A stretch of 26,344 nucleotides of DNA, from assembly GCA_030637655.1 (NCBI GenBank), contig DAOWGI010000083.1, positions 1 to 26,344 on the forward strand, given 5' to 3'. The notes under the pieces were generated by a model that worked only from the letters and a program-made list of their open reading frames with translations, was not told the DNA's origin and ran no database searches. The translations under genes were made by a program, and so were the position numbers. This DNA comes from a candidate division FCPU426 bacterium. Its GTDB lineage: Bacteria > Oederibacteriota > JAAXVQ01 > JAUVAV01. Shown here one piece after another: positions 477-23,808 of this stretch (the stretch's first letter is position 1; every line of letters begins with the position of its first letter).

Positions 477-3400
477 TTACGCTGCGTTGGCAAAACTAAA
501 CTGGAGCGTGCGTCTTTCATTTATCCTGGCAGCCAAATCCGGCTCCATTTCAAATGCTCCTTCTATTTTATAGCTATAAAGCAAGGCATTCTGCACTATG
601 GCACCCATGCGCAGCGCCTTGGGAATATATATTTTATGCGGTCCATTAGCTGCGCTGGTATATGTTCCCAGTACGGCTGTTTCCCTGCCGAACATTTTCG
701 AATTTTCAAAGTATTTACCCAGGCTCAATAAAGCTGCTTCATAATCTTTAGCAGTTGTCCCTGTTTGTCGGGCTTGGTATTTTAATATGCTCATAAGGGA
801 ACGCGCGAACTTTGCTTTCGCGGCTTTTTTCTTCCGGTCACTTTTCGCCAGGCAATAGGCATTATAATGCTGCAGCGGCGCTTCTATTTTACCAAACTGT
901 TTTGTAAAAATAGCATGGCCGATAAGAGACTCCACTTCTTGGTCAAAACTTCTCTGAATAGCAGCAGTTATTGGTTTAATGTTCGGCAAAACTTCCTGAC
1001 AGGGAACCACTGCAACCAGCGTAGCCGGGTCCAGCGCGTTGGCAGTAACATCAGCATCCGATTTTATGAAAACATGCGAAATAGCCGGTATGGCAACTCT
1101 AACTTTTTGGCCCGAGGGAGCTGTTACTGTCTTTTCCACTACTCTATCATTGTGCACCATGGCATTTACCTGATAGGGCAGTAACCCCCCGCCCAAATTG
1201 ACAAAGACCGGCTGGTCAGGAGCAATCTGCGCTAAAATCTGCTTTAACTGCGCGCTCTCAACTGCTGTCAATATCCCATTTTCTCTGGTCAAAATACTCT
1301 GAATAAAGTTCAATACATCCTTTAGCTTTCGGTTTTCACCAACCTGATCCAAAAGTTTTGCCGCTATTTGTTGATAAATTCCAGGAACCTCTGACTTGTC
1401 AGCAAACAAAAGATGGGCCATATCATATTTTTTAGGCAGATCTTTTTCATTTATGTTCAGCAGTTCCAGCTTTAAAGCAGCGCTATTGACCCCGTACTTT
1501 AAACGCATAAGCTGTTCCTGAATGCTCCGCACCACGCCTTCCAGAAGCTCCGGCTGGTCTATTGTTTCTAAAATCATTTCTCGCATGCTTTGCAGTGAAA
1601 GACGAAGCGCAGGATTCTCAATTTTCGCGATTTGTTCCTGGCTCAAGTTTTGTATTATATATGCAGTCCATTTAATATTTTTATCCCAACCCTTGCCTAA
1701 GGTTATCTCCAGTTGTTTAGTCATTTCCACACTGTCCCACAAACTGCCGGCTTTTTTGTTAACCATTGACCCGATAATATTCAGGATTTCCAGAATCTGC
1801 GGGCCAGAAACGCCGATTTGTCTTTCTACATTCTGCTTACTATAAAAAGCAGCCACAGCAGATACTCCATGCTCTGCCGGCTTATTTAAGTCACCGGCTG
1901 TTCGCCAGGTAACGCCCGGACCATAAATTTTGCTGAGTTCATCCGCTGCTTCTGCTCCTGCCTGGATTGCCTTTATCGCATATTTGTCAAATTGCTGATC
2001 CAGCTTCCAGGCAATAAATCTCGAGATTGTCCGCCATATAATATTGTCCTTGCTTTTTTTCACTATATATCCTGCCCAGGCCGGCATGCTTATAATAGTT
2101 TCGAAATCTTCTTCTGTTAGTCTCGAAGTTAAACCCTTAGCAGCCTGCGGTTTAAGCTTACGTTCCACGTAAAATTCACCGCATTCCACGAAGAGGTTTT
2201 TTTCAATCTTTTCACCGAACATCGGCCCAAAAATAGCCTGCTTAAAATCATCTCTCTTTCCGTATATTTTCGCATAGATGATTTTACCAAAAGAAGTATC
2301 CTTTAGCGACGCATTGGATTTCGTTGCCCCTAAAAATTGCCTCATGGATTCACGGTCAAACGGCTCCATGGTGGTTAAAAAATTCACTAAATAGTGCGAG
2401 ACTATCCAAAACGAGAAAAGTATGCCCAGGCTCAAGCCGGGTGACAAGAAAAGAAAATGCACGACTATCAGAACAAAACTATTGAGTATAGCCAACTTAT
2501 TGGCTATTTCTTGTCTTTCTTGCAGCACAGACTCATTGATTCCACTTTTGCCGCTTTTATCATAATGAGCCCTGGTGAATACGCCCCCTTTAAATTCATC
2601 ACCCACGCTGGGGAGTGTATAAAAGAAAAAGCTTGCTTCAATTACCTTAGTGGTTACAGCCCAATTTCCGGCCCACAGACTTGTAGCCATAAAAATAATC
2701 GCGAAAAACGGAATCCCCGGAATCACTAATTCCGCGGGGCTAGCGAATTTCCGGATATACGTACGGCTTGAAATGCCCAGCTTTTTTGCCCACGCTTCCA
2801 GCCGCCACATGGCGCCGCCGGTTGGTGCCGGCGGTTTCCGGCCACGCTTCATGTCTTCAGCATTATCCGGGACTATGTCCGCTGTGACAGCTGATACCGC
2901 GTACATACTGATTTCATCCAATTCTTTATCAAATTCCGGCCGTTTATCTTCGCTCACTTTTTCTAACAATATCTTTTCCACTATCTCAGGATGTTTTAGT
3001 AAATATTCCACTTCCAACCCGTGTAAAAAACCAGATACCGCGCTAACTTCCCGATCGCCCTTGACTATTTTAACCGCACTCAGACGTTGCAACAAAGCAG
3101 CCATGACCACAGAACGCATGCTGATTATGGAGTCATATTCCCCATGCAAATATTTGTATTGTTCCATGAACAAGGGCATAGGCAAAAAGAACCTGCGGTG
3201 GTTTTCAACATATTTTTCAAACTCCCCATCTTGCCGCACTTGCCCATCCGGCGCGCCTGCCAGACCGAGCCTCCCTTTGCACCAATGCCATAAGCGCTCG
3301 GACTGTGTAATAAAAGTATCATGAATTACATCACCCAAAGTAAATTTACCCTCTTGATAAAAAGAATAATAAAAAAACCTGACCAAGATAATGATGACAG

Positions 3401-6400
3401 GCAATCCGGAGAGCAATAAAACAATGGGCACCAAGATAACTATATTATTATCAAATTGCATTATAAAGGGTAAACCTTGATAGAACAGCAAGAATTCGTA
3501 AACCAGAAAAGCTATTGTTGGTATTGCGGCCATAAACAAGCTTAGGAGCTTGTCAGCTTTCCCTAAATTGCTTGTAAAATATTTTTTAACCAAGAAAATA
3601 TCGCACGCGCTGCATGTGCCGGCATAGGATGGAAATCGTTCTTCCAATAAAATTGCCCTTTTTTTCACCTTATGGTTGGCTATTATTTCGGCTAAATTCC
3701 CGGCGTAAAAATACAGGTCATGATGGCCTACAGAGAGGTAGACTTTCTTGCCCTTTACGTCCACTTTTAAACTGCGGGTTTTTTCCTCTATTTGTTCAGT
3801 TTTCTGAGGATAATATTCAGGAAACACCTTGTCCCAAAGTTCGGAGATTTGGTCCACAAAGACCAACTTTTGTTCCGGGCTGTGGGGACGTCTTGTAATC
3901 AATCCTTTTTCCAAAAAAACATCAGCCAAACGGTCAAAATCATCCGCTTGCAGGATAAGTTCTGCCAGGTTCTGCATAGATACACCCATTTGCTCTGCTT
4001 TATTTAATATTATCTCAGCATCGTAGTTCCGGGTCGTCTCTTTGAACTCCAACCAGGCCGACAACCTGGTTAATCCTTGATTGATCAGAAAATTATTTAC
4101 CCAGGTTACCGCAAACATATAAGGCATGGTTAAAGAGGTTATAACCACTGAATCATTTTTTCGCGCTCGGCTCGGCGTCCAGCCTAACCTCTTTGCCAGG
4201 GAGGCGCCGGGCGTGCGAGCAGGTTGTTTCTTGGTTTTTTTATCTTCCACGGTACCTCGCAAATCCAGTACATAAGAAGCAATTGCAGAATCAGTGTCCG
4301 GCGCCTGTTCCTTAATTCTCTTAATAAGTTCGCGTAATCGTCCTGCTAAACTACACTGGTGGAAATCATCACCTGTTTTAAATATAATTCCGGGAGAGAC
4401 ATCACCATATGCGTCTTTAAGGAAATTTGACTTTCGTTCAACCCCAGGCATAACTATATCCTGCTTCCCGCCTTTTCCCCACCGCACTAATGCCCAAAAA
4501 GCTTCCTGCGCTAAATTAATACGGCCATAAAGTATACCCGTATCATTATAAATATTTTCTTCCAGATAAATATTTTCCTCCAGCAATTGGATAATTAATT
4601 CCACAATATCACGGTCAATAAATTCGATATATTCCGGATTAGATAGTACCAATAACGCTTGCAGGCGTACGTAAGGATCAGCTGACTGCAATGCCCGTTT
4701 ATAGATAGGTAGGCTTTTAGGTTTTTTGAAGCGGGCGGCAAGCAATACCAACCCCTGATCAAACTCCCGCGGGCTTTGCACAAGTTCTGTGACTATCTCC
4801 TCCTCCGCAACTCCCCAATTTCTCAGCAGTCCAATGATTAGGTCACGTGTTGGGGATGTTATTTCCCAAGTAGGTAAAAATTTAATAAAATCTGATTTTA
4901 AATCTTTCAGATCATGTTTTTTTGCGAAAGCGGCAATTTCCGATATATCCTCCGAAGAAAAAGACCTTTTCCCAAGCATCCGGCGCAGGCCCGGCCGCAT
5001 TAGGGATGGATCAATTTTAGCGAAAACATTTAAAAGCGCCATTTGGAAGACAATATCTCCGCTGCCGGGTTCTGCGAGCTTCTCCACATAATATGTGAAT
5101 AGTTTATATAATCTTCCATTAAGATTTTCAGATTGTTTAAGAACTGACTTTGAATAACCATTTAAGGCCTTGGCTGCTTCTCTTCTGTCCTTTGAAAAAG
5201 TTGGTCTTTTTATAATCCCTAAGAAAGAAAAAGTATCTTTCTCTATTACCCGCAAAAAGATTGTCAGGTTTTCTTGGGTATCCATACCTTTGACTGCCCG
5301 CGCTTTTTCGGCTGCTATTGACAGCAGGGGCAATGTTTTTGCGATTCTGGCTCTTAAGCCTTTCTCTTTTTTCCTCCACTCAAGAACTTTTTTGTTATAC
5401 CAGGCATGGACCCAAATGTTTAATTGTCTCGCTTTATCATTATCCCTTATCAGCTTTCTGCCTATTTTCACTCCGTAATTCGCGCTAATAAAAATAAGTA
5501 TTATTGGAATTACCCCTGTTACTTTTAATATTACTGTTAGTGCATAAATAGACAGAGGCAAAATCAACATCCACAAATACATTGTAGCTGCCAAAACAAA
5601 ACCAGCCCACCATAGCCGCATTTCTTCTTCTCTCCCCTTATGCGCGGCTTGAAAAATGTCGGTTCGCTTCAGTGTATAAAACAATGCCGGCATTAATGCC
5701 GCTATAAGAGGCGCAGTCCCGGGATAATGAAAGACTAACAATAAAAACACTACTGCCGTAATCTCCTGAATTATCCTCCCGGGAAAAAGGAGAAGCAATT
5801 GTTCATCTACCCCTTTCCAGTTTAATACTATTTTTTTCAGCTCGTTTTTCTCAAGCAATTCATTTATTTCTGCTTGTAATTCCCAAAATGCCTCCTTCTC
5901 CCTGTCCGGGACAAATAGTAATGATTCGTGTTTAGGCACTATTTCTGTAGTGATTTCATAGTATAAGTCAAACTGATCTTCAGCAAACCCCGGATTAGCT
6001 TCCGCTAAAGCGCTATCTACTATGGATAGCAGCGTCTTTTTTTGTATTCGAGATTTTACTTCCGTAGGCAACACCTTTTTCGATTCACAATATCGATTAA
6101 ATTTATAGTGCAAATACAGGAAGGCTGCAATACTGATCAGGAGATTTACGGAAGGAAAAACATAGGTGGGAATAGCCAGCCACAACAAACCTGTGATCAG
6201 CGATATGAAGGCGGTAATCACGGCATTTTTCAGAGGCGTTTTAGTTTTAGTGCGCAGAAATGGCAGTAGCTTGTCCAAATGGAACAACACCGGATAGAGA
6301 ATCAGGGCCAATTTGAATGTGCTCTGTGAAATCGCCATTAAGCTGTCCGTGGGCAGCCATTGCGCCATGATAGGATGCGTTCCCCACAGGCTGCTTAAGC

Positions 6401-9400
6401 CCCAGAGCCCTATTCCGCCGGCTATCAGCACCCAGGCAATCTCAATAAAAACCAGATACTTGTCATATGTCTTTTCTGTCATCGGAAACCGCTTAAGCGT
6501 CCAGGTCTTTAACAGCGCGAATTTGCCGCCGAGCGATGCAGCAGTGCCGGATTTGATATCCTTATCAAAACCCGATAATTCCAGTTTCTCCAGCTCAATG
6601 GATCTTTGCAATTTTGACGTATCCACGCCTTTTGGCGCTTCAGCAAAGAAGTGGCCGAAAAACTGCCCGATTTTCGCATTCAAATATTTTAGCGGAGTAT
6701 CTTTTAGGGTCTTGTTGGCATTATGCTTTTGCAATACTTCAATCACGGCTTGTTCTGCTGCCGGGGTAAATTTCCCCAGGTCTTTCACCCGCATCAATTC
6801 CATGTGCTTGAGTTCTTTGGCAACCCATCCGACAATATCGCCAATGGCTTCCTTTTCGTCTCCAGTAAATCCTTCTGCGAATTTATTGGCCCAGGCAATA
6901 AATTCCGGCGTTTCGATATCCCACATCACAGTACCTGAATTTGTAAGGGTCAAAGTCCCGTTTACTAATCCTTTCCAAACCGGTACTTTTCCTATTCTCT
7001 CTCTGACTTGTTCAAAAGCGCGCTCAACATCCTCTGGATTAACCACGTTACTCTGCGCGGCTTTATCTTCTGCGGACAATTGCTTCAACTTAGGATACAG
7101 AACCGTAGCATGAAATTGGCCGGGCCGGGTAAAGGCCGCTTTAAAGCCATATTCTTCGGCCACTTGCTCTAAGTCCTTTTCAACCTCTTTCATTTTATCT
7201 TCCAATTTCTTATTAGCGCTATCTTTTCCAACAACAATAGTTATAGGCGAATACTTTTTACCTGCAAAAACATTTTCAATATTTTTTCTTAAAACATCCG
7301 GATCAGTAATCAGATATTTAGGCTTAAAATCAGCTTTCCATAACCACACCGCGATTATTGCCAAAACAAATATGACTATCAGATTAAATATGGCTTCCGG
7401 AGTATATGGTAAAATAAATCCCAACCCTATTCCGCCCAAATACAACGCCCAAATCACCCCTGCTGCCTGCAGGATATATACGTAAGTCAAAGAGCCAATG
7501 CTGCCAAAAATGTTATGAGTAAACGTTTCAAAAATTCGAATTATTTTTGCACCCCATAATTTACCTCCCATAGCTGTCATCGCCGATTTAGGCAAAATTG
7601 TATTTTGGCCGCGCTGCCACCTTAATGCGCTCCCCAGTGATTTGATGAGCGCTTGTGGAACAGTTAATCCTTTTTCCCGGTTTAATTCAAAGCTTAAACG
7701 CTGAATAGTAATACCTAAAAACAGCACTCCTAACGCCAATCCTGCAAATAAAAACCATATCCCAGAGGCATAATAACCCAGCCCTGCGACTCCCAAGCTT
7801 GAGATATAAGCTCTCCAGGGAGTTAATTCTCTTACAAATATTTTCATATACCAATACGATGTCAAACCAAAAGCGATTACGCCCCACAAAGGCGCCAGCG
7901 CAAAAATAAAGCCGATGTTGGCTGCTGCCAGGATGTAGGTAAACAGCACTTTAATTTTTGCTTCAAGGGTTAGACCATCCCAGCGGTCTTGTTTTAATAC
8001 ACGCTTGTTAGGAAAAATTGCCCAACCCAGACAGATATCTATTAGCATTAATTTGGAAAATCCAATACTGGTATTAACAAAGCCTACATACAGAGCGGTC
8101 ACTACAGCCACAAATCCAATGCTTCCCAATGACAACTCCTCTTTTGGTAATGGCCTTTTGTCTGATTCCGCACCTGTCACCGGATTCTCTTCATTTTCAA
8201 GTTCTTTGAAGCCATTCACCAATTCATGCAGAAAACTGCCGACTGGGACAGCTAACCTTGCGAGCATTACGTCTGCCAAAGGCAGCTGGCTTGGCATGCT
8301 AGCTAACATTGCCACCACTCCCAATAACAACAGCGAACTTACCGTGGCTGACATGGCGGCGTGGGCAGCCAGGTCGAATCTTTGATAAGGTGTTTGCTTT
8401 TCAGCTAATTTAAGGGAAGACACATACTTGCTTTTCCCGGAATCATACACAAGCACGCCCCAAACATAATGAGCAACTAAAAAGGCAACAAAAATTACGA
8501 CTGCAGGCACTATGATAAGCCAGCCGAAATCAATGAGAGTATGCGTGTCCTTTAGAATAAAATGCAGCACCGGAAAAAAATAAATAAACGCGGCTGCCAA
8601 GCCTTCGTACCTTCCCGCCTGGCGCGGCGTCCAGCCGCGCTTCTCTGCCCAGGGCCCGCCGATAGCGCCGGGAGTGCGATCAGCTAAACTTAAATCAGCT
8701 GATTCATTTGTAGCATCAATAAATTGAAGTTGCCCATTAACAAAACTTGCATAACCTACACTATCGTGAGCAGCAAAAATTATGTAATGATTGGGAAATA
8801 CTTCCCAACACCACTTACCATCCCTCTTCGGAGAATGTCCGACGACAAAAACCGCATTAGGTTGGCCTATATTTCCAAGAAAATTCTTCACATCTGGATA
8901 ATTATAGTCCTCATGATACCTATTTCGTTCCAACTGATAAACAATAGGATTATCCTTATTTGCAACATCTACATTTTTAATATCATCGAGGGTTACGCCG
9001 CCTTTTACAGGACCGGCATGACAACCCACAATCCCATCCCCCACACCCATTACAGGACTACTATTAATAAATTCTTCATATTTTTCCAAATAGTCCTTCC
9101 CATATCTCTCCCTTAATTTATTTTTGTACACTTTCCCTTGAGAAACACCGTTTATACTAAAGTCCGCTGATAAATAATCGTGATTGCCTAATACATAGTA
9201 AACATTATCTTTATTCTGTATTTTCAACTTCATAATAAACTGCATAATCTCAATTGAGGTATCCATTTCCGCTAATTTTTCTTGTTTTTCATTATGTACC
9301 GCATCACCTAAAATAACTAAAACCGCTTCTCCTCTATTTATCTTGCCAAGATTATCATTTGCATTTAATGTTTTTTTCAGATTATCCAAACGTGTATGTA

Positions 9401-19680: not shown

Positions 19681-21840
19681 TTATTTCTTTTCCAGCTTTT
19701 TCAAAATAGTTATTATTTCCTGATCACCTTTTTTCTCGGCAATTTTCATGGCAGTAGTGCCAATAGCATACTCTTTATATACAATCTTCCCGGCTTTAGC
19801 AAGTTTGGCATTAACCTCCACGCCTTTAGTAATTAACCACCTGACATTCTTGGCATTTCCATAATGTACTGCATAATGCAGCGGGGTCGCGCCAATCCGG
19901 CTCTTTATATTAACCTCCGCGCCCTGCGAGATAAGCCACTCAAGTAATTTTTCATTCTCCAATTGCACGGCGTTATAAATCGGGGTCAAACCTTTTTCGT
20001 CCCTGGCATTAATATCAGCGCCTTCACGCACTAAATATTTCACGTTCTCCAGTATACCGCTGGTAACGGCAACAAAAAGCGGGGTCGCGCCTACATTAAT
20101 ATTTATATTAACCTCGGCCCCCTTTTGCAGCAAAAATTTAATTACCGGCAATCTTCCGCTTTGCGCCGCACAATACAGAGGATTATAAACCCCCTTGCCA
20201 AGATTCACATCGGCTTTATGCGCCAGCAAAAACCGGACCATTTCGAGATTCCTGTTCTGTACCGCCTGCGCCAGCGGAGTTATCCCCACATTGGTCATAA
20301 CATTGACTTTTCCGCCTTTTCGAACTACAAATTTCGCCGGTTCTATTAAGCTATGCGAAGCTATCTTGTGTAAACAAGTAGTGCCGTCTTTAGTCCGGAA
20401 ATTAACATCCGCTCCTTTATCCAACAGATAACTTATTATAGGTTTTGAAGCACAATAAAAACATAAAAGCGGAGTATTGCCCTCATTGTCTCTAGCCTTA
20501 ATTTCCGCGCCCTGGTTAATTAATAATTTTATCATGTCAAGATTAGAAGATTCACATGCTTGATGCAGCGGAGTTCTTCCCTGGGTATTACGGGCATTAA
20601 CATCAGCGCCCTGGTTAATCAAATAACCGGCATTATCAAGGTAACCATAACTCGCAGCCAAATGCAGCGGGGTATTGCCGGCATTATCCAGCACATTAAC
20701 ATTTTTATTTTTAGCAATAATCATTTTTAACAAATCAAAATTGGGACCTCCGGCAGCCACATGCAGCAAAGACATGCCGGCATTGACTTTTTCATTTACA
20801 TTAGCTCCTTGGGATATCAAATAGGCCGCGATTTCCAGCGAGGAACTGACCGCTATTTGCAAAGGAGAATAGCCATAACTGGTTTTAAGATTCAGTTCGG
20901 CGCCATGTTTAATTAAATATTTAACTATTTCCAAATCCAAAGCGCTGATCGCGGCTATTAATGGGCTACTCAATTCCTGCTGGCCGGAACTGTTTATTTC
21001 CGCCCCATTGGCCACAAAGATTTTTGCGATCGCCAAATTCCCCCTGTTGCAAACGTTATATAATGGCGTTACTCCACAAGTGCTTTTCACATTTAAGCTT
21101 GCGCCCTGGTTAATTAACAGTTTGGCAATCTCCGGATCATTATTCACTTTAAAGATTGCGGTTTCTCCACCCTGATCTTTAATATGCAAATCAGCGCCTT
21201 GCTTAAGTAAAAGCTTAACTATTTCAACGGCATCGCTCTGCACTGCCGCCATCAGCGGAGTCAGACCATAACTATTCTTTTGGTTTTTATCCAGCCCGGC
21301 TTTAATCAGTTTCTGCGCGATTTCCGGATTACCGCCATTCTCAGCCACAATATGCAACAAAGTATCCTGATATCTGGTTTTAATTCGTATATTTTCCTGC
21401 TTTTGCAGGAACCAGTTCAATACTGCGTTGTTTTCACCCAAGGCGGCATAAAATACCGCATTCAGACCATTGGAATCTTTGGTTTTTAAATCAGCGCCTT
21501 TGCTTATAAGATATTGGACCAGTTCCAGACTCCCATTACGTGCGGCTAAATGCAAAGCTGTGGTACCTTTGCTATTCCGAATAGTAATTTTCGCGCCTTT
21601 TTCGAGCAATAGTTTAACCATAGCTTTATTTCCCTCGGCTGCCGCAACTTGTAAAGCCGTATAATCATTCAAATTTTTCACAGTCAAACTGGCGCCGTCA
21701 TCCAGGGCCTTTTTAACCTGATTAATCTCCCCGGCATTAATTGCTTTGAACAAATCAACATTAGCATTCGCATAACTCAGGCTTGCGCAGCCAAGCAGAG
21801 CTATTCCACAGATCAACCGCAAAAATGTTTTTTGTTTCAT
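19681..21840 (-). CDS. Exported ankyrin-repeat protein (about 20 repeats)
   Basis: Signal peptide, repeated GxTPLHxA...LIxxGADVN, and GGAGG RBS. Confidence 0.96.
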   Translation of the reverse strand: MKQKTFLRLICGIALLGCASLSYANANVDLFKAINAGEINQVKKALDDGASLTVKNLNDYTALQVAAAEGNKAMVKLLLEKGAKITIRNSKGTTALHLAARNGSLELVQYLISKGADLKTKDSNGLNAVFYAALGENNAVLNWFLQKQENIRIKTRYQDTLLHIVAENGGNPEIAQKLIKAGLDKNQKNSYGLTPLMAAVQSDAVEIVKLLLKQGADLHIKDQGGETAIFKVNNDPEIAKLLINQGASLNVKSTCGVTPLYNVCNRGNLAIAKIFVANGAEINSSGQQELSSPLIAAISALDLEIVKYLIKHGAELNLKTSYGYSPLQIAVSSSLEIAAYLISQGANVNEKVNAGMSLLHVAAGGPNFDLLKMIIAKNKNVNVLDNAGNTPLHLAASYGYLDNAGYLINQGADVNARNTQGRTPLHQACESSNLDMIKLLINQGAEIKARDNEGNTPLLCFYCASKPIISYLLDKGADVNFRTKDGTTCLHKIASHSLIEPAKFVVRKGGKVNVMTNVGITPLAQAVQNRNLEMVRFLLAHKADVNLGKGVYNPLYCAAQSGRLPVIKFLLQKGAEVNININVGATPLFVAVTSGILENVKYLVREGADINARDEKGLTPIYNAVQLENEKLLEWLISQGAEVNIKSRIGATPLHYAVHYGNAKNVRWLITKGVEVNAKLAKAGKIVYKEYAIGTTAMKIAEKKGDQEIITILKKLEKK

Positions 21841-21936: not shown

Positions 21937-23808
21937 TTATTCCTTTAATCCCAACACTTCATATACAGACAAAGCCTCGGCCTTGCCTTTGAGCATAATT
22001 CCCGCATGTTCCTTGACTTCCACAATGTCCTTTACTGCCTGATAGGTACTTTCGGAAATCAGGAAAAACGCCCCTAAATCCTTGGTTTTACTCTCCAAAC
22101 GGGAAGCCACATTGACCGTATCCCCGATCGCTGTGTATCCCATGGCCTGCTGAGAACCCATATTGCCCACAATCGCTTCCCCGGTATTAAGACCCACACC
22201 AATCTTAATAGTACGCCGGCCTTCGCCTTTCCATTTGTTGTTCAATTTTTCCAAAGCCTGCTTCATATCCAGTGCTGCTCTCACAGCGCGCGCCGGATCA
22301 TCCTCGTGCGCGACCGGCGTCCCAAAAATAGCCATCACTGCGTCACCAATGAATTTATCCACCATGCCATCATGCTTAAAGATAATATCTGTCCAGGTCT
22401 GGAAATATTCATTAAGCAACTCAACAACCTGTGCCGGTGGAATCTGCTCGGACATGGAGGTGAAACCGCGCACATCCGAAAAAAGCACTGTCACATTCTG
22501 CTGATTGCCTCCCAATTTCAACGCGGCATTCGGATCTTTAACCAATTGATCCACCACTTTGGGTGAAACAAAACGTGAGAACACACCCTTAATATACCGG
22601 CTCTGACGTTCCTCTGTGACCAACAGATAGGCCAGTACTACCACATAGGTGCCTACGTTAATCATAATCATGGGGGTGAACATGGGTATTACCAAATCAA
22701 ATTGTACAAACAGCCAGGAAGCAACTCCGCCGTAAAGGAATATGGATGCCACGAGCAGCAAAAAGCTGTACCAGGTCCGAAGATGTGCACACACCAAGGC
22801 CAAACTCAGAGCCAAAAGATAAAACACCAAAATGTTTAACCAGCTTGAGCTGTTAATGAAATATTTTTCCTGCAGAATGGTATCCAACACATTCGCGTGA
22901 ATTTCCACGCCTGAGGTTAAACCACTGGAACGCAGCAAAGGTGTGGCATGATCATCCTGCGCTTCGGTAAACATGGGACCGATTAAAACAATTTTCCCTT
23001 TAAACATCTCTGTATCCAACAGGCCCTGGAAAATTTCGTCATCCATGATATTATCAAAAGAAACAATCGTAAAACTGCCCGGACCGCCGCGATAGTTGAT
23101 CATCAGGTCGGCATTTCGTTTTACTTTTATTTCCATGGAGCCGTAGGTGAGCAGATTATTGGTAAGGATTACTTTCGGATCTTTGATTTTATAAAAACGC
23201 GAGAGGATTTTAAGTATAAACGATTGATATAACTTTCCTTGATGTTTGCGTATTAAAGCCGCGTGGCGCACAATACCGTCTTTATCATGCCAATAATTTA
23301 CATAGCCGACATGCGTCTTTCCCGGATCAATCTTTGGAATCGGAGCCACATAAGAAGTCTTCGTGCCGACGGCCGTCTTTTTGGCGTAAAATTTACTACC
23401 CAAAACAATCCAGGCGCGGGAGCGGATAATGGCTTCTCCCAATATTTTGTCCTGACGCGCGACATCTTCATCACTAGGTTCCGAGAAAATCAAGTCAAAG
23501 GCTATAACCTGGGCCCCGGCTTTGGAAAGATTATCAATGGCTTTGGCAAAAACAGATCGCGGCCAGGGCCAGCGGACTTTAAGTGATTCCATGGTTTGAT
23601 CATCTATACCCACAATAATGATTTTATCTTCCCTGGACGGACCGACGAATTCTTTCATCATATAGCGCAAATCCAGCATTTTGTTCTCATAGGTAATGCC
23701 AAAACCCACATAATCCATAAATGAAAACAAGGTGGCAACAGACAACGCGATAATAATCGCCATTTTTGTCTTACTGACTTTTTTTATGTATTCAACAATG
23801 GCCTGCAT
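21937..23808 (-). CDS. CHASE2-domain class III adenylate cyclase
   Basis: IVGIDD..RWPWPR, SGVEIHAN, three TM helices, VLFSDVRGFT, DKFIGDAVMA and YTAIGDTVNVASRLE. Confidence 0.95.
   Translation of the reverse strand: MQAIVEYIKKVSKTKMAIIIALSVATLFSFMDYVGFGITYENKMLDLRYMMKEFVGPSREDKIIIVGIDDQTMESLKVRWPWPRSVFAKAIDNLSKAGAQVIAFDLIFSEPSDEDVARQDKILGEAIIRSRAWIVLGSKFYAKKTAVGTKTSYVAPIPKIDPGKTHVGYVNYWHDKDGIVRHAALIRKHQGKLYQSFILKILSRFYKIKDPKVILTNNLLTYGSMEIKVKRNADLMINYRGGPGSFTIVSFDNIMDDEIFQGLLDTEMFKGKIVLIGPMFTEAQDDHATPLLRSSGLTSGVEIHANVLDTILQEKYFINSSSWLNILVFYLLALSLALVCAHLRTWYSFLLLVASIFLYGGVASWLFVQFDLVIPMFTPMIMINVGTYVVVLAYLLVTEERQSRYIKGVFSRFVSPKVVDQLVKDPNAALKLGGNQQNVTVLFSDVRGFTSMSEQIPPAQVVELLNEYFQTWTDIIFKHDGMVDKFIGDAVMAIFGTPVAHEDDPARAVRAALDMKQALEKLNNKWKGEGRRTIKIGVGLNTGEAIVGNMGSQQAMGYTAIGDTVNVASRLESKTKDLGAFFLISESTYQAVKDIVEVKEHAGIMLKGKAEALSVYEVLGLKE

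Follow-up and report, generated by a model that had tools for sequence, protein, structure and literature searches.

What are the bundles of transmembrane (TM) helices that recur along a giant bacterial protein, each carrying a glutamate, an FxxxH motif, and an HxxxN motif in the order known from CPBP/Abi intramembrane proteases? We addressed this question in a 26,344-nucleotide contig (DAOWGI010000083.1, assembly GCA_030637655.1; referred to here, at its full length, as the window) from a candidate division FCPU426 bacterium, in which a single open reading frame (ORF), P0001, encodes a mosaic membrane protein containing all of the bundles. An initial annotation of the window had described four of them as repeats of a CPBP/Abi-like module. 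Our analysis indicates that three of the four (M1, M2, and M4) belong to separate sequence families in which the motif residues are kept, and that the module is probably a new autonomous unit with a CPBP-like tetrad (the Glu, the two His, and the Asn or Asp), acting as a hydrolase at the membrane interface.

All of the motif strings quoted in the initial annotation translate correctly from the minus strand, including the variant YPVLFH at ~6279, and the span that they cover (2382-8640) falls within the single ORF. The ORF, its modules, and one isolated module lead are as follows.

477..11468 (-): giant ORF P0001, 3,663 amino acids (aa), a mosaic membrane protein containing all modules.
8193..8696 (-): module M1, residues 925-1092, PGAI lead plus four helices, tetrad intact; E955 at 8604-8606, FLVAH (996-1000) at 8469-8483, HELVN (1081-1085) at 8214-8228.
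7740..8180 (-): fifth, degenerate module of the short M4 type, residues 1097-1243.
6048..6608 (-): module M2, residues 1621-1807, GGK lead, tetrad intact; E1676 at 6441-6443, YPVLFH at ~6279 with His1730, HYKFN (1787-1791) at 6096-6110.
5328..5906 (-): module M3, residues 1855-2047, a doubtful member; E1902, FQAAH (1939-1943) at 5640-5654, HAWYN (2021-2025) at 5394-5408.
4158..4217 (-): orphan M1-type lead RTPGASLAKRLGWTPSRARK, residues 2418-2437, with no bundle after it.
2319..2846 (-): module M4, residues 2875-3050, GG lead, tetrad intact; E2913 at 2730-2732, FTRAH (2964-2968) at 2565-2579, HYLVN (3025-3029) at 2382-2396.

The motifs occur far more often than sequence composition predicts. 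We defined a strict triple as E, 25 to 70 residues, FxxxH, 40 to 110 residues, and HxxxN; in composition-preserving shuffles of each module, this triple arose with P values of 0.0004 to 0.0023 (0.004 to 0.025 for a loose triple), and 26 strict triples were present in the 47 ORFs of the genome that are 1,500 aa or longer, versus 6.2 ± 2.1 in block shuffles, a fourfold excess. Among 25 copies recruited with hidden Markov models (HMMs) of M1, M2, and M4, the Glu was present in 23, the motif-2 His in all 25, the motif-3 His in 24, and the Asn or Asp in all 25; the copies are kin, so these counts do not represent 25 independent events, and five further modules that had been selected by the motif itself were left out of them. 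The tetrad positions are almost the only invariant polar residues in the three families. In the M1 family (alignment A4; six copies, 22 to 59% identical to the window copy), the Glu, the His, and HxxxN are each found in 6/6 copies, and the invariant columns are the P-G-A-I lead, G28, E31 (E955), P64, H76 (H1000), G80, A117, S121, L122, A149, H157 (H1081), and N161 (N1085). The M4 family (alignment A5; 10 copies, 17 to 37% identity) is invariant at P43, G88, H94 (H2968), and N155 (N3029) and keeps Y30, A35, E39 (E2913), G60, F90, N122, L143, and H151 (H3025) in 9/10 copies. The nine full-length copies of the M2 family retain the Glu in 8/9, the motif-2 His in 9/9, and HxxxN/D in 9/9; the family consensus for motif 2 is FPILH, of which the PVLFH of the window copy is a variant. 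The motif-2 Phe at -4 is present in 4/6 M1 copies and 9/10 M4 copies and appears in the FPxxH form in M2. Because they are conserved in the M1, M2, and M4 families, these sequence comparisons support the view that the E/FxxxH/HxxxN residues of the three modules are functional.

Other module types with the same E/FxxxH/HxxxN-or-D layout were also seen in giant ORFs, for example, GLKWE ... FLFLH ... HNxFD. These are the five modules picked by motif (G000:C10 13337-14146, G000:C63 58363-59235, G000:C46 1243-1740, G000:C88 6808-7335, and G000:C112 26975-27517); some have a CPBP-like E-to-His spacing of 28 to 37 residues, and 0/5 match PF02517.

The picture of four equal repeats did not hold: the modules are not detectable as repeats of one another. 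A self-BLAST of the 3,663-aa protein for internal repeats returned nothing at an E value of ≤10, HMM iteration keeps four separate families, and hhalign comparisons between the M2, M1, and M4 family alignments gave probabilities of 0.6%, 4.6%, and 1.5%. M2 and M4 are linked by a common N-terminal lead (GG..W..TY, 8 to 9 residues before the Glu), which is the only part that aligns, and one locus (G008:C389) was recruited by both the M2 and the M4 HMMs. Conservation of the motifs in homologs, established for M1, M2, and M4, fails for M3, whose sole paralog (C57, 54% identical) has F/H, Y, and I at the positions of the Glu and the two His. Moreover, HAWYN of M3 lies ~27 residues past the last hydrophobic helix, so motif 3 of M3 is outside the membrane helices. 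On these sequence grounds, the membership of M3 in the module set is doubtful.

The protein also holds a fifth module that the first reading missed, since replacement of its motif residues makes it invisible to a reading by motif. It shares 25 to 33% identity with four short M4-type copies (alignment A6) and matches G002:C15 in a tblastn search (E = 1.5e-13). The Glu is kept, but the motif-2 His is replaced by Arg (FPNKR) and SHxxxN has become SYWYMK (H to Y and N to K). The initial suggestion that the modules may be inactive anchors therefore fits some copies, the fifth module and the M3 paralog, in which the tetrad is lost. Farther along, residues ~1296-1377 (7338-7580 (-)) open with a GGK..W lead, MGGKLWGAKIIRIFETF, behind which come two or three hydrophobic helices; His motifs are absent, and this stretch may be another truncated or degenerate module.

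AlphaFold2 models built from the family alignments were confident and showed four-helix bundles for both M1 (predicted local distance difference test score [pLDDT], 88; predicted template-modeling score [pTM], 0.82) and M4 (pLDDT, 86; pTM, 0.76). In the M1 model, the helices span positions 24-48, 54-79, 103-132, and 139-167, with a beta-hairpin (81-93) after helix 2. The Glu lies 7 residues into helix 1, the motif-2 His is 3 residues short of the end of helix 2, and the motif-3 His and Asn are 10 and 6 residues short of that of helix 4; these predicted positions would bring all four residues to a similar depth, on the face that bears the two ends of the module. Motif 3 falls in the last helix of both models. 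The density of Lys plus Arg is 0.15 to 0.16 per residue on the side of the tetrad and the termini versus 0.03 in the loop between helices 1 and 2, which would place the tetrad side and the flanking domains in the cytoplasm. The K/R-rich N terminus of the giant protein, followed by a single signal-anchor, would instead place its N-terminal "head" outside, and hydropathy showed no further hydrophobic helix before M1. The two topology indications agree only if the number of helices in residues 1218-1377 is odd or if the Lys-plus-Arg rule fails here.

How close is this arrangement to that of known CPBP enzymes? As described in the available text of one report (PMC11980579), the CPBP domain consists of four TM helices (TM4 to TM7 in MrtX and MmRce1), with EExxxR on the first, the motif-2 His on the second, and HxxxN on the fourth; the water is bridged between the E and the motif-2 His, and the oxyanion hole is made up of the H and N of HxxxN. 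The accessible part of another (PMC6588880) states that CPBP proteins bind no metal and that, besides EExxxR, they have two His located in two other TM segments. The modules resemble CPBP/Rce1 proteins (PF02517; MmRce1, 4CAD; myxosortase MrtX) in having a four-helix core with the Glu on helix 1, FxxxH ending helix 2, and HxxxN/D on helix 4, all toward one membrane face; the FxxxH of CPBP motif 2 is found in the modules, and HxxxN/D stands on the fourth core helix in all but M3. They differ in consisting of four helices plus an amphipathic lead, compared with the six core TM helices shared by the ECOD RCE-1-like group, and in being embedded several to a chain, within proteins that range from 1,000 to more than 12,000 aa; stand-alone copies were never found. 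The likeness in order, helices, and membrane face is thus the part of the CPBP/Abi-like reading that stood. Homology was not recovered with Pfam, NCBIfam, hhalign, Foldseek, or VIA-align.

Several results weigh against a CPBP-like site in these bundles. PF02517 gave no match to the whole protein at an E value of ≤1, and a genome scan with the same model, which did pick up two ordinary CPBP genes on other contigs, gave no match in the window. None of 33 module copies scored above the curated PF02517 cutoff of 22.4 bits (one copy had a subthreshold match over the motif-3 region, at 14.6 bits and E = 0.041), and 0/28 copies matched any NCBIfam CPBP model at an E value of ≤1. A profile-profile comparison came out negative: hhalign, run with alignments A1, A4, and A5 and with a pooled alignment against an alignment of 28 CPBPs drawn from the same phylum, gave probabilities of ≤1.3% and scores of 11.8 to 18.5, versus 10.2 to 13.7 for reversed decoys, with query alignments that were shallow (effective number of sequences, 1.6 to 2.4) and sensitivity that was accordingly low. 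Motif 1 is indeed reduced to a single Glu, as had been noted (GRxEG in M1, IE[TIA] in M2, and one Glu with a one-residue slide in M4); the second Glu of EExxxR and the Arg at +5 are both absent. The E-to-His spacing is 43 to 48 residues in M1, 54 to 66 in M2, and 42 to 75 in M4, compared with 32 to 34 in the 28 CPBPs of the same phylum. Foldseek searches of the PDB with the M1 and M4 models found no match at an E value of ≤0.001, and the best VIA-align matches among 48,161 chains (Z = 7.6 and 7.4) were generic helical bundles; Rce1 (4CAD) and APH-1 were not among the listed matches of either program, which does not exclude them. Finally, the persistence of degenerate copies points to a role of the modules that does not need the tetrad. 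A sequence profile search of the PDB with A4, A5, and A1 also returned nothing below E = 0.9. Membership of the modules in the CPBP/Rce1 family is not shown by these sequence and profile comparisons, and the likeness to CPBP may reflect either extreme divergence or convergence.

With these points set against the conservation of the tetrad, we tentatively favor, at slightly less than an even chance, the reading in which the modules hold a hydrolytic site that works like that of CPBP on a new, minimal four-helix scaffold. The tail of the giant protein is punctuated by autonomous four-helix modules of ~130 to 170 aa from at least three sequence families (the M1, M2, and M4 types). Their common design comprises a Gly-rich lead and short amphipathic helix, a helix 1 that starts with the Glu, a helix 2 that ends in (F)xxxH, and HxxxN/D near the end of helix 4, with the tetrad predicted to sit on the membrane face where the two ends of the module lie. 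We hypothesize that the Glu and His activate a water molecule, that HxxxN forms an oxyanion hole, and that a peptide (or an ester or lipid) would be cut at the membrane interface. As for the substrate, the giant protein's own linkers would be the foremost candidate and are attractive in this role because the Gly-rich leads are conserved (PGAI in 6/6 M1 copies and GGK/GGT in M2 and M4). Copies without a tetrad, such as the fifth module and the M3 paralog, would be left as plain anchors.

It is somewhat unlikely, by our estimate, that the tetrad is instead a noncatalytic metal or cofactor site (Zn, Fe, Mn, or a bis-His heme) or an ion path, with the modules serving as sensing, redox, or transport units. 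A Glu with two His is a classic set of metal ligands, and an early view of CPBP as a metalloprotease had the same basis (according to the accessible part of PMC6588880). In the models, both His lie at similar depths on helices 2 and 4, which would also fit bis-His ligation. The weak top structural matches include ZnT7 (Foldseek E values of 0.29 to 1.2 and template-modeling scores of 0.21 to 0.27), the MgtE TM domain (VIA-align Z = 7.5), and VIT1 (Z = 5.8), but these are within the range generic for helical bundles. The i/i+4 pairs F...H and H...N/D, furthermore, reproduce protease motifs rather than known metal or heme motifs, several such modules per polypeptide would be odd for a transporter, and no metal- or heme-family Pfam model matched at an E value of ≤10.

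We consider it unlikely that the modules act as passive anchors or units of insertion that fix soluble domains to the membrane, their polar residues forming only a buried hydrogen-bond network that stabilizes the bundle. The retention of copies without a tetrad (H to R, H to Y, and N to K in the fifth module, and the C57 paralog of M3) is what such a role would allow, as are the even number of helices, the placement between soluble domains, and the failure to find any stand-alone homolog of 74 to 349 aa. It is harder to reconcile with passive anchoring that the same four residue types occupy the same helix positions in three otherwise unalignable families; structural networks rarely reproduce a catalytic signature that includes F at -4 and N/D at +4.

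If the hydrolytic reading is taken further, the giants become self-processing membrane polyproteins, in which each intact module would be a minimal intramembrane protease cutting at its upstream Gly-rich lead (PGAI, GGK, or GGT). We regard this as rather doubtful, and self-processing of the giant protein is speculative. The orphan lead (RTPGAS..LGWTPS), which lies ~1,480 residues downstream of M1, is not retained in the corresponding part of the C77 paralog and therefore provides no evidence for a substrate site. A complex prediction that combined the M1 bundle (residues 951-1092) with the orphan-lead stretch (residues 2405-2470) scored 0.00 in two runs without controls.

Genuine membership of the modules in the CPBP/Rce1-like family through descent, with very strong divergence, seems improbable. 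The modules share with CPBP the order of the motifs, their placement on the helices, and a core of four helices (as judged from the available text of PMC11980579), there is the one subthreshold PF02517 match, and some of the motif-picked modules have spacings of 28 to 37, although these carry no weight for conservation, having been picked by motif. The homology tests that we ran gave no support to descent, EExxxR is not kept, and the E-to-His spacing differs. It is scarcely credible that the motifs are chance matches in hydrophobic sequence, a view plausible for M3 alone, whose motifs are not kept in its paralog and whose motif 3 is outside the membrane helices, and refuted for M1, M2, and M4 by conservation, with per-module shuffle P values of 0.0004 to 0.025, the fourfold genome-wide excess, and near-invariance in 25 copies. 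Two further families were set aside on general knowledge of their features: PAP2 phosphatases have HxxxD and a His motif, but the modules lack KxxxxxxRP and had no Pfam match to them at an E value of ≤10, and rhomboids have an HxxxN oxyanion hole but use a Ser-His dyad and six TM helices.

The window is one contig of a 3.28-Mb assembly (120 contigs; 91.6% complete) that is rich in giant genes: the 47 long ORFs counted above reach up to 12,216 aa and sum to 153,583 aa, or ~14% of bases. Each module recurs alone, with varying neighbors, in giant ORFs of its own genome and of the same taxonomic family, as found by tblastn and HMM searches, and the open frames that hold module matches measure 980 to 12,551 aa across all matches. 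The M4-type profile was found in 7/11 genomes of the taxonomic family (with its own genome counted) and in 1/88 other genomes of the phylum, with a borderline E value of 5.1e-4. An exhaustive phmmer search of residues 920-2050 against 1.84 billion representative proteins yielded 7 matches: five (P0002 to P0005 and P0007; proteins of 2,127 to 4,702 aa) fell on M1 or M2, P0006 (4,516 aa) fell on residues 1110-1220, in the degenerate fifth module, and P0008 (730 aa) fell on residues 1370-1562. No stand-alone homologs of the M4 type (74 to 335 aa) or the M1 type (92 to 349 aa) were found, and none of 1,944 scored candidates was a homolog of residues 900-3100 with a similar length. A pattern scan of contigs with alignment A2 gave 302 pattern matches, of which 0 were confirmed. 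M4 and the C-terminal domain (~610 aa) travel together in two other giant ORFs, C4 and C77 (phmmer of residues 2881-3663, E = 1.2e-272 and 8.4e-82, respectively). As judged by this distribution of homologous sequences, the modules are autonomous cassettes that move between giant proteins. A short M4-type module was also seen in a 12,551-aa open frame (G006:C1 ~400728-401183) of a complete-looking genome of the same family.

The remaining parts of the giant protein are as follows.

11328..11384 (-): hydrophobic signal-anchor, residues 29-47, with a K/R-rich N terminus before it (hydropathy, sequence).
10074..11465 (-): shared N-terminal head, residues ~2-465 (phmmer versus all ORFs of the genome).
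8823..9419 (-): calcineurin-like phosphoesterase (Metallophos), residues 684-882 (PF00149, E = 5.3e-13).
480..2318 (-): C-terminal soluble domain, residues 3051-3663.

The head also opens 23 other long ORFs of the genome, with partial copies at contig edges, and the window protein belongs, on the evidence of these head matches, to a large family of giant mosaic membrane proteins that is specific to the lineage and combines a common head with a variable tail. At the left edge of the window, an 82-aa ORF that runs off the contig (2-247 (-)) matches head residues 4-90 (E = 1.5e-50); since this is the start of a head, a second giant gene begins just downstream, giving two head-bearing giants in tandem. 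Metallophos was the sole Pfam match on the whole 3,663-aa protein (E = 2.7e-14 when the domain piece was searched alone). When eight soluble pieces were searched separately in Pfam, a single weak HEAT match was the only addition, and PDB sequence searches with three soluble pieces were empty. For the C-terminal soluble domain, the Pfam and PDB sequence searches returned no known family. The soluble stretch at residues 1370-1562 (6782-7361 (-)), which follows a TM cluster, had no Pfam or PDB match; its one distant relative in the library of 1.84 billion proteins is the 730-aa protein P0008 (E = 2.6e-7, 25% identity). Upstream of the giant gene lie a 719-aa protein that is nearly all ankyrin repeats and a CHASE2-adenylate/guanylate cyclase (19681-21840 (-) and 21937-23808 (-)), and the further neighbors include FecR-like, Ig-like, and cohesin/T9SS-tail proteins and a MiaB-like protein.

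Protease-like folds whose catalytic residues have been lost or are unused are known among CPBP relatives, namely, APH-1, a subunit of gamma-secretase, and CflP of group B Streptococcus (as described in the accessible parts of PMC6588880 and PMC13692083, respectively). The degenerate fifth module and the M3 paralog parallel these cases; APH-1 and CflP are, however, demonstrable CPBP homologs, whereas the modules described here have no demonstrated homology to CPBP even when intact. The giant proteins of Omnitrophota ("Archaeovorins") likewise come from very long ORFs, in which divergent soluble domains are separated by numerous TM regions, according to the available text of two preprints (bioRxiv 10.1101/2023.11.21.568195; 10.64898/2026.06.07.730766). 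Whether those giants are cleaved into pieces is an open question in the first of these, as far as its accessible text goes; in the available portions of the two papers, the possible cutters proposed are C39 and S8 peptidase domains, no conserved polar motifs in TM bundles are described, and the retrieved text of the 2026 preprint (10.64898/2026.06.07.730766) contains 0 occurrences of "CPBP" or "intramembrane." The proteins described here also share an N-terminal head that differs from that of the Omnitrophota giants. Our literature searches on giant proteins and CPBP, preprint supplements aside, turned up no account of conserved polar motifs, or of modules resembling CPBP, within the TM bundles of such giants.

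Bacterial giants that carry dozens of TM helices have been described at the sequence level alone. Our results turn part of their anonymous TM content into a defined domain of ~150 aa, with four helices and four conserved polar residues, and suggest that this module is a built-in cutter or a catalytic anchor. If the tetrad is catalytic, the module would represent a minimal scaffold for a CPBP-type protease or hydrolase, either convergent or diverged beyond recognition; if it is not, the module would still define a membrane domain family that is new, specific to the lineage, and freely recombined among giant genes. Should self-processing prove true, one 3,663-aa chain would yield several enzymes, each tethered by its own module, which would answer the question of whether such giants act whole or in pieces and would make the module the smallest CPBP-like protease known.

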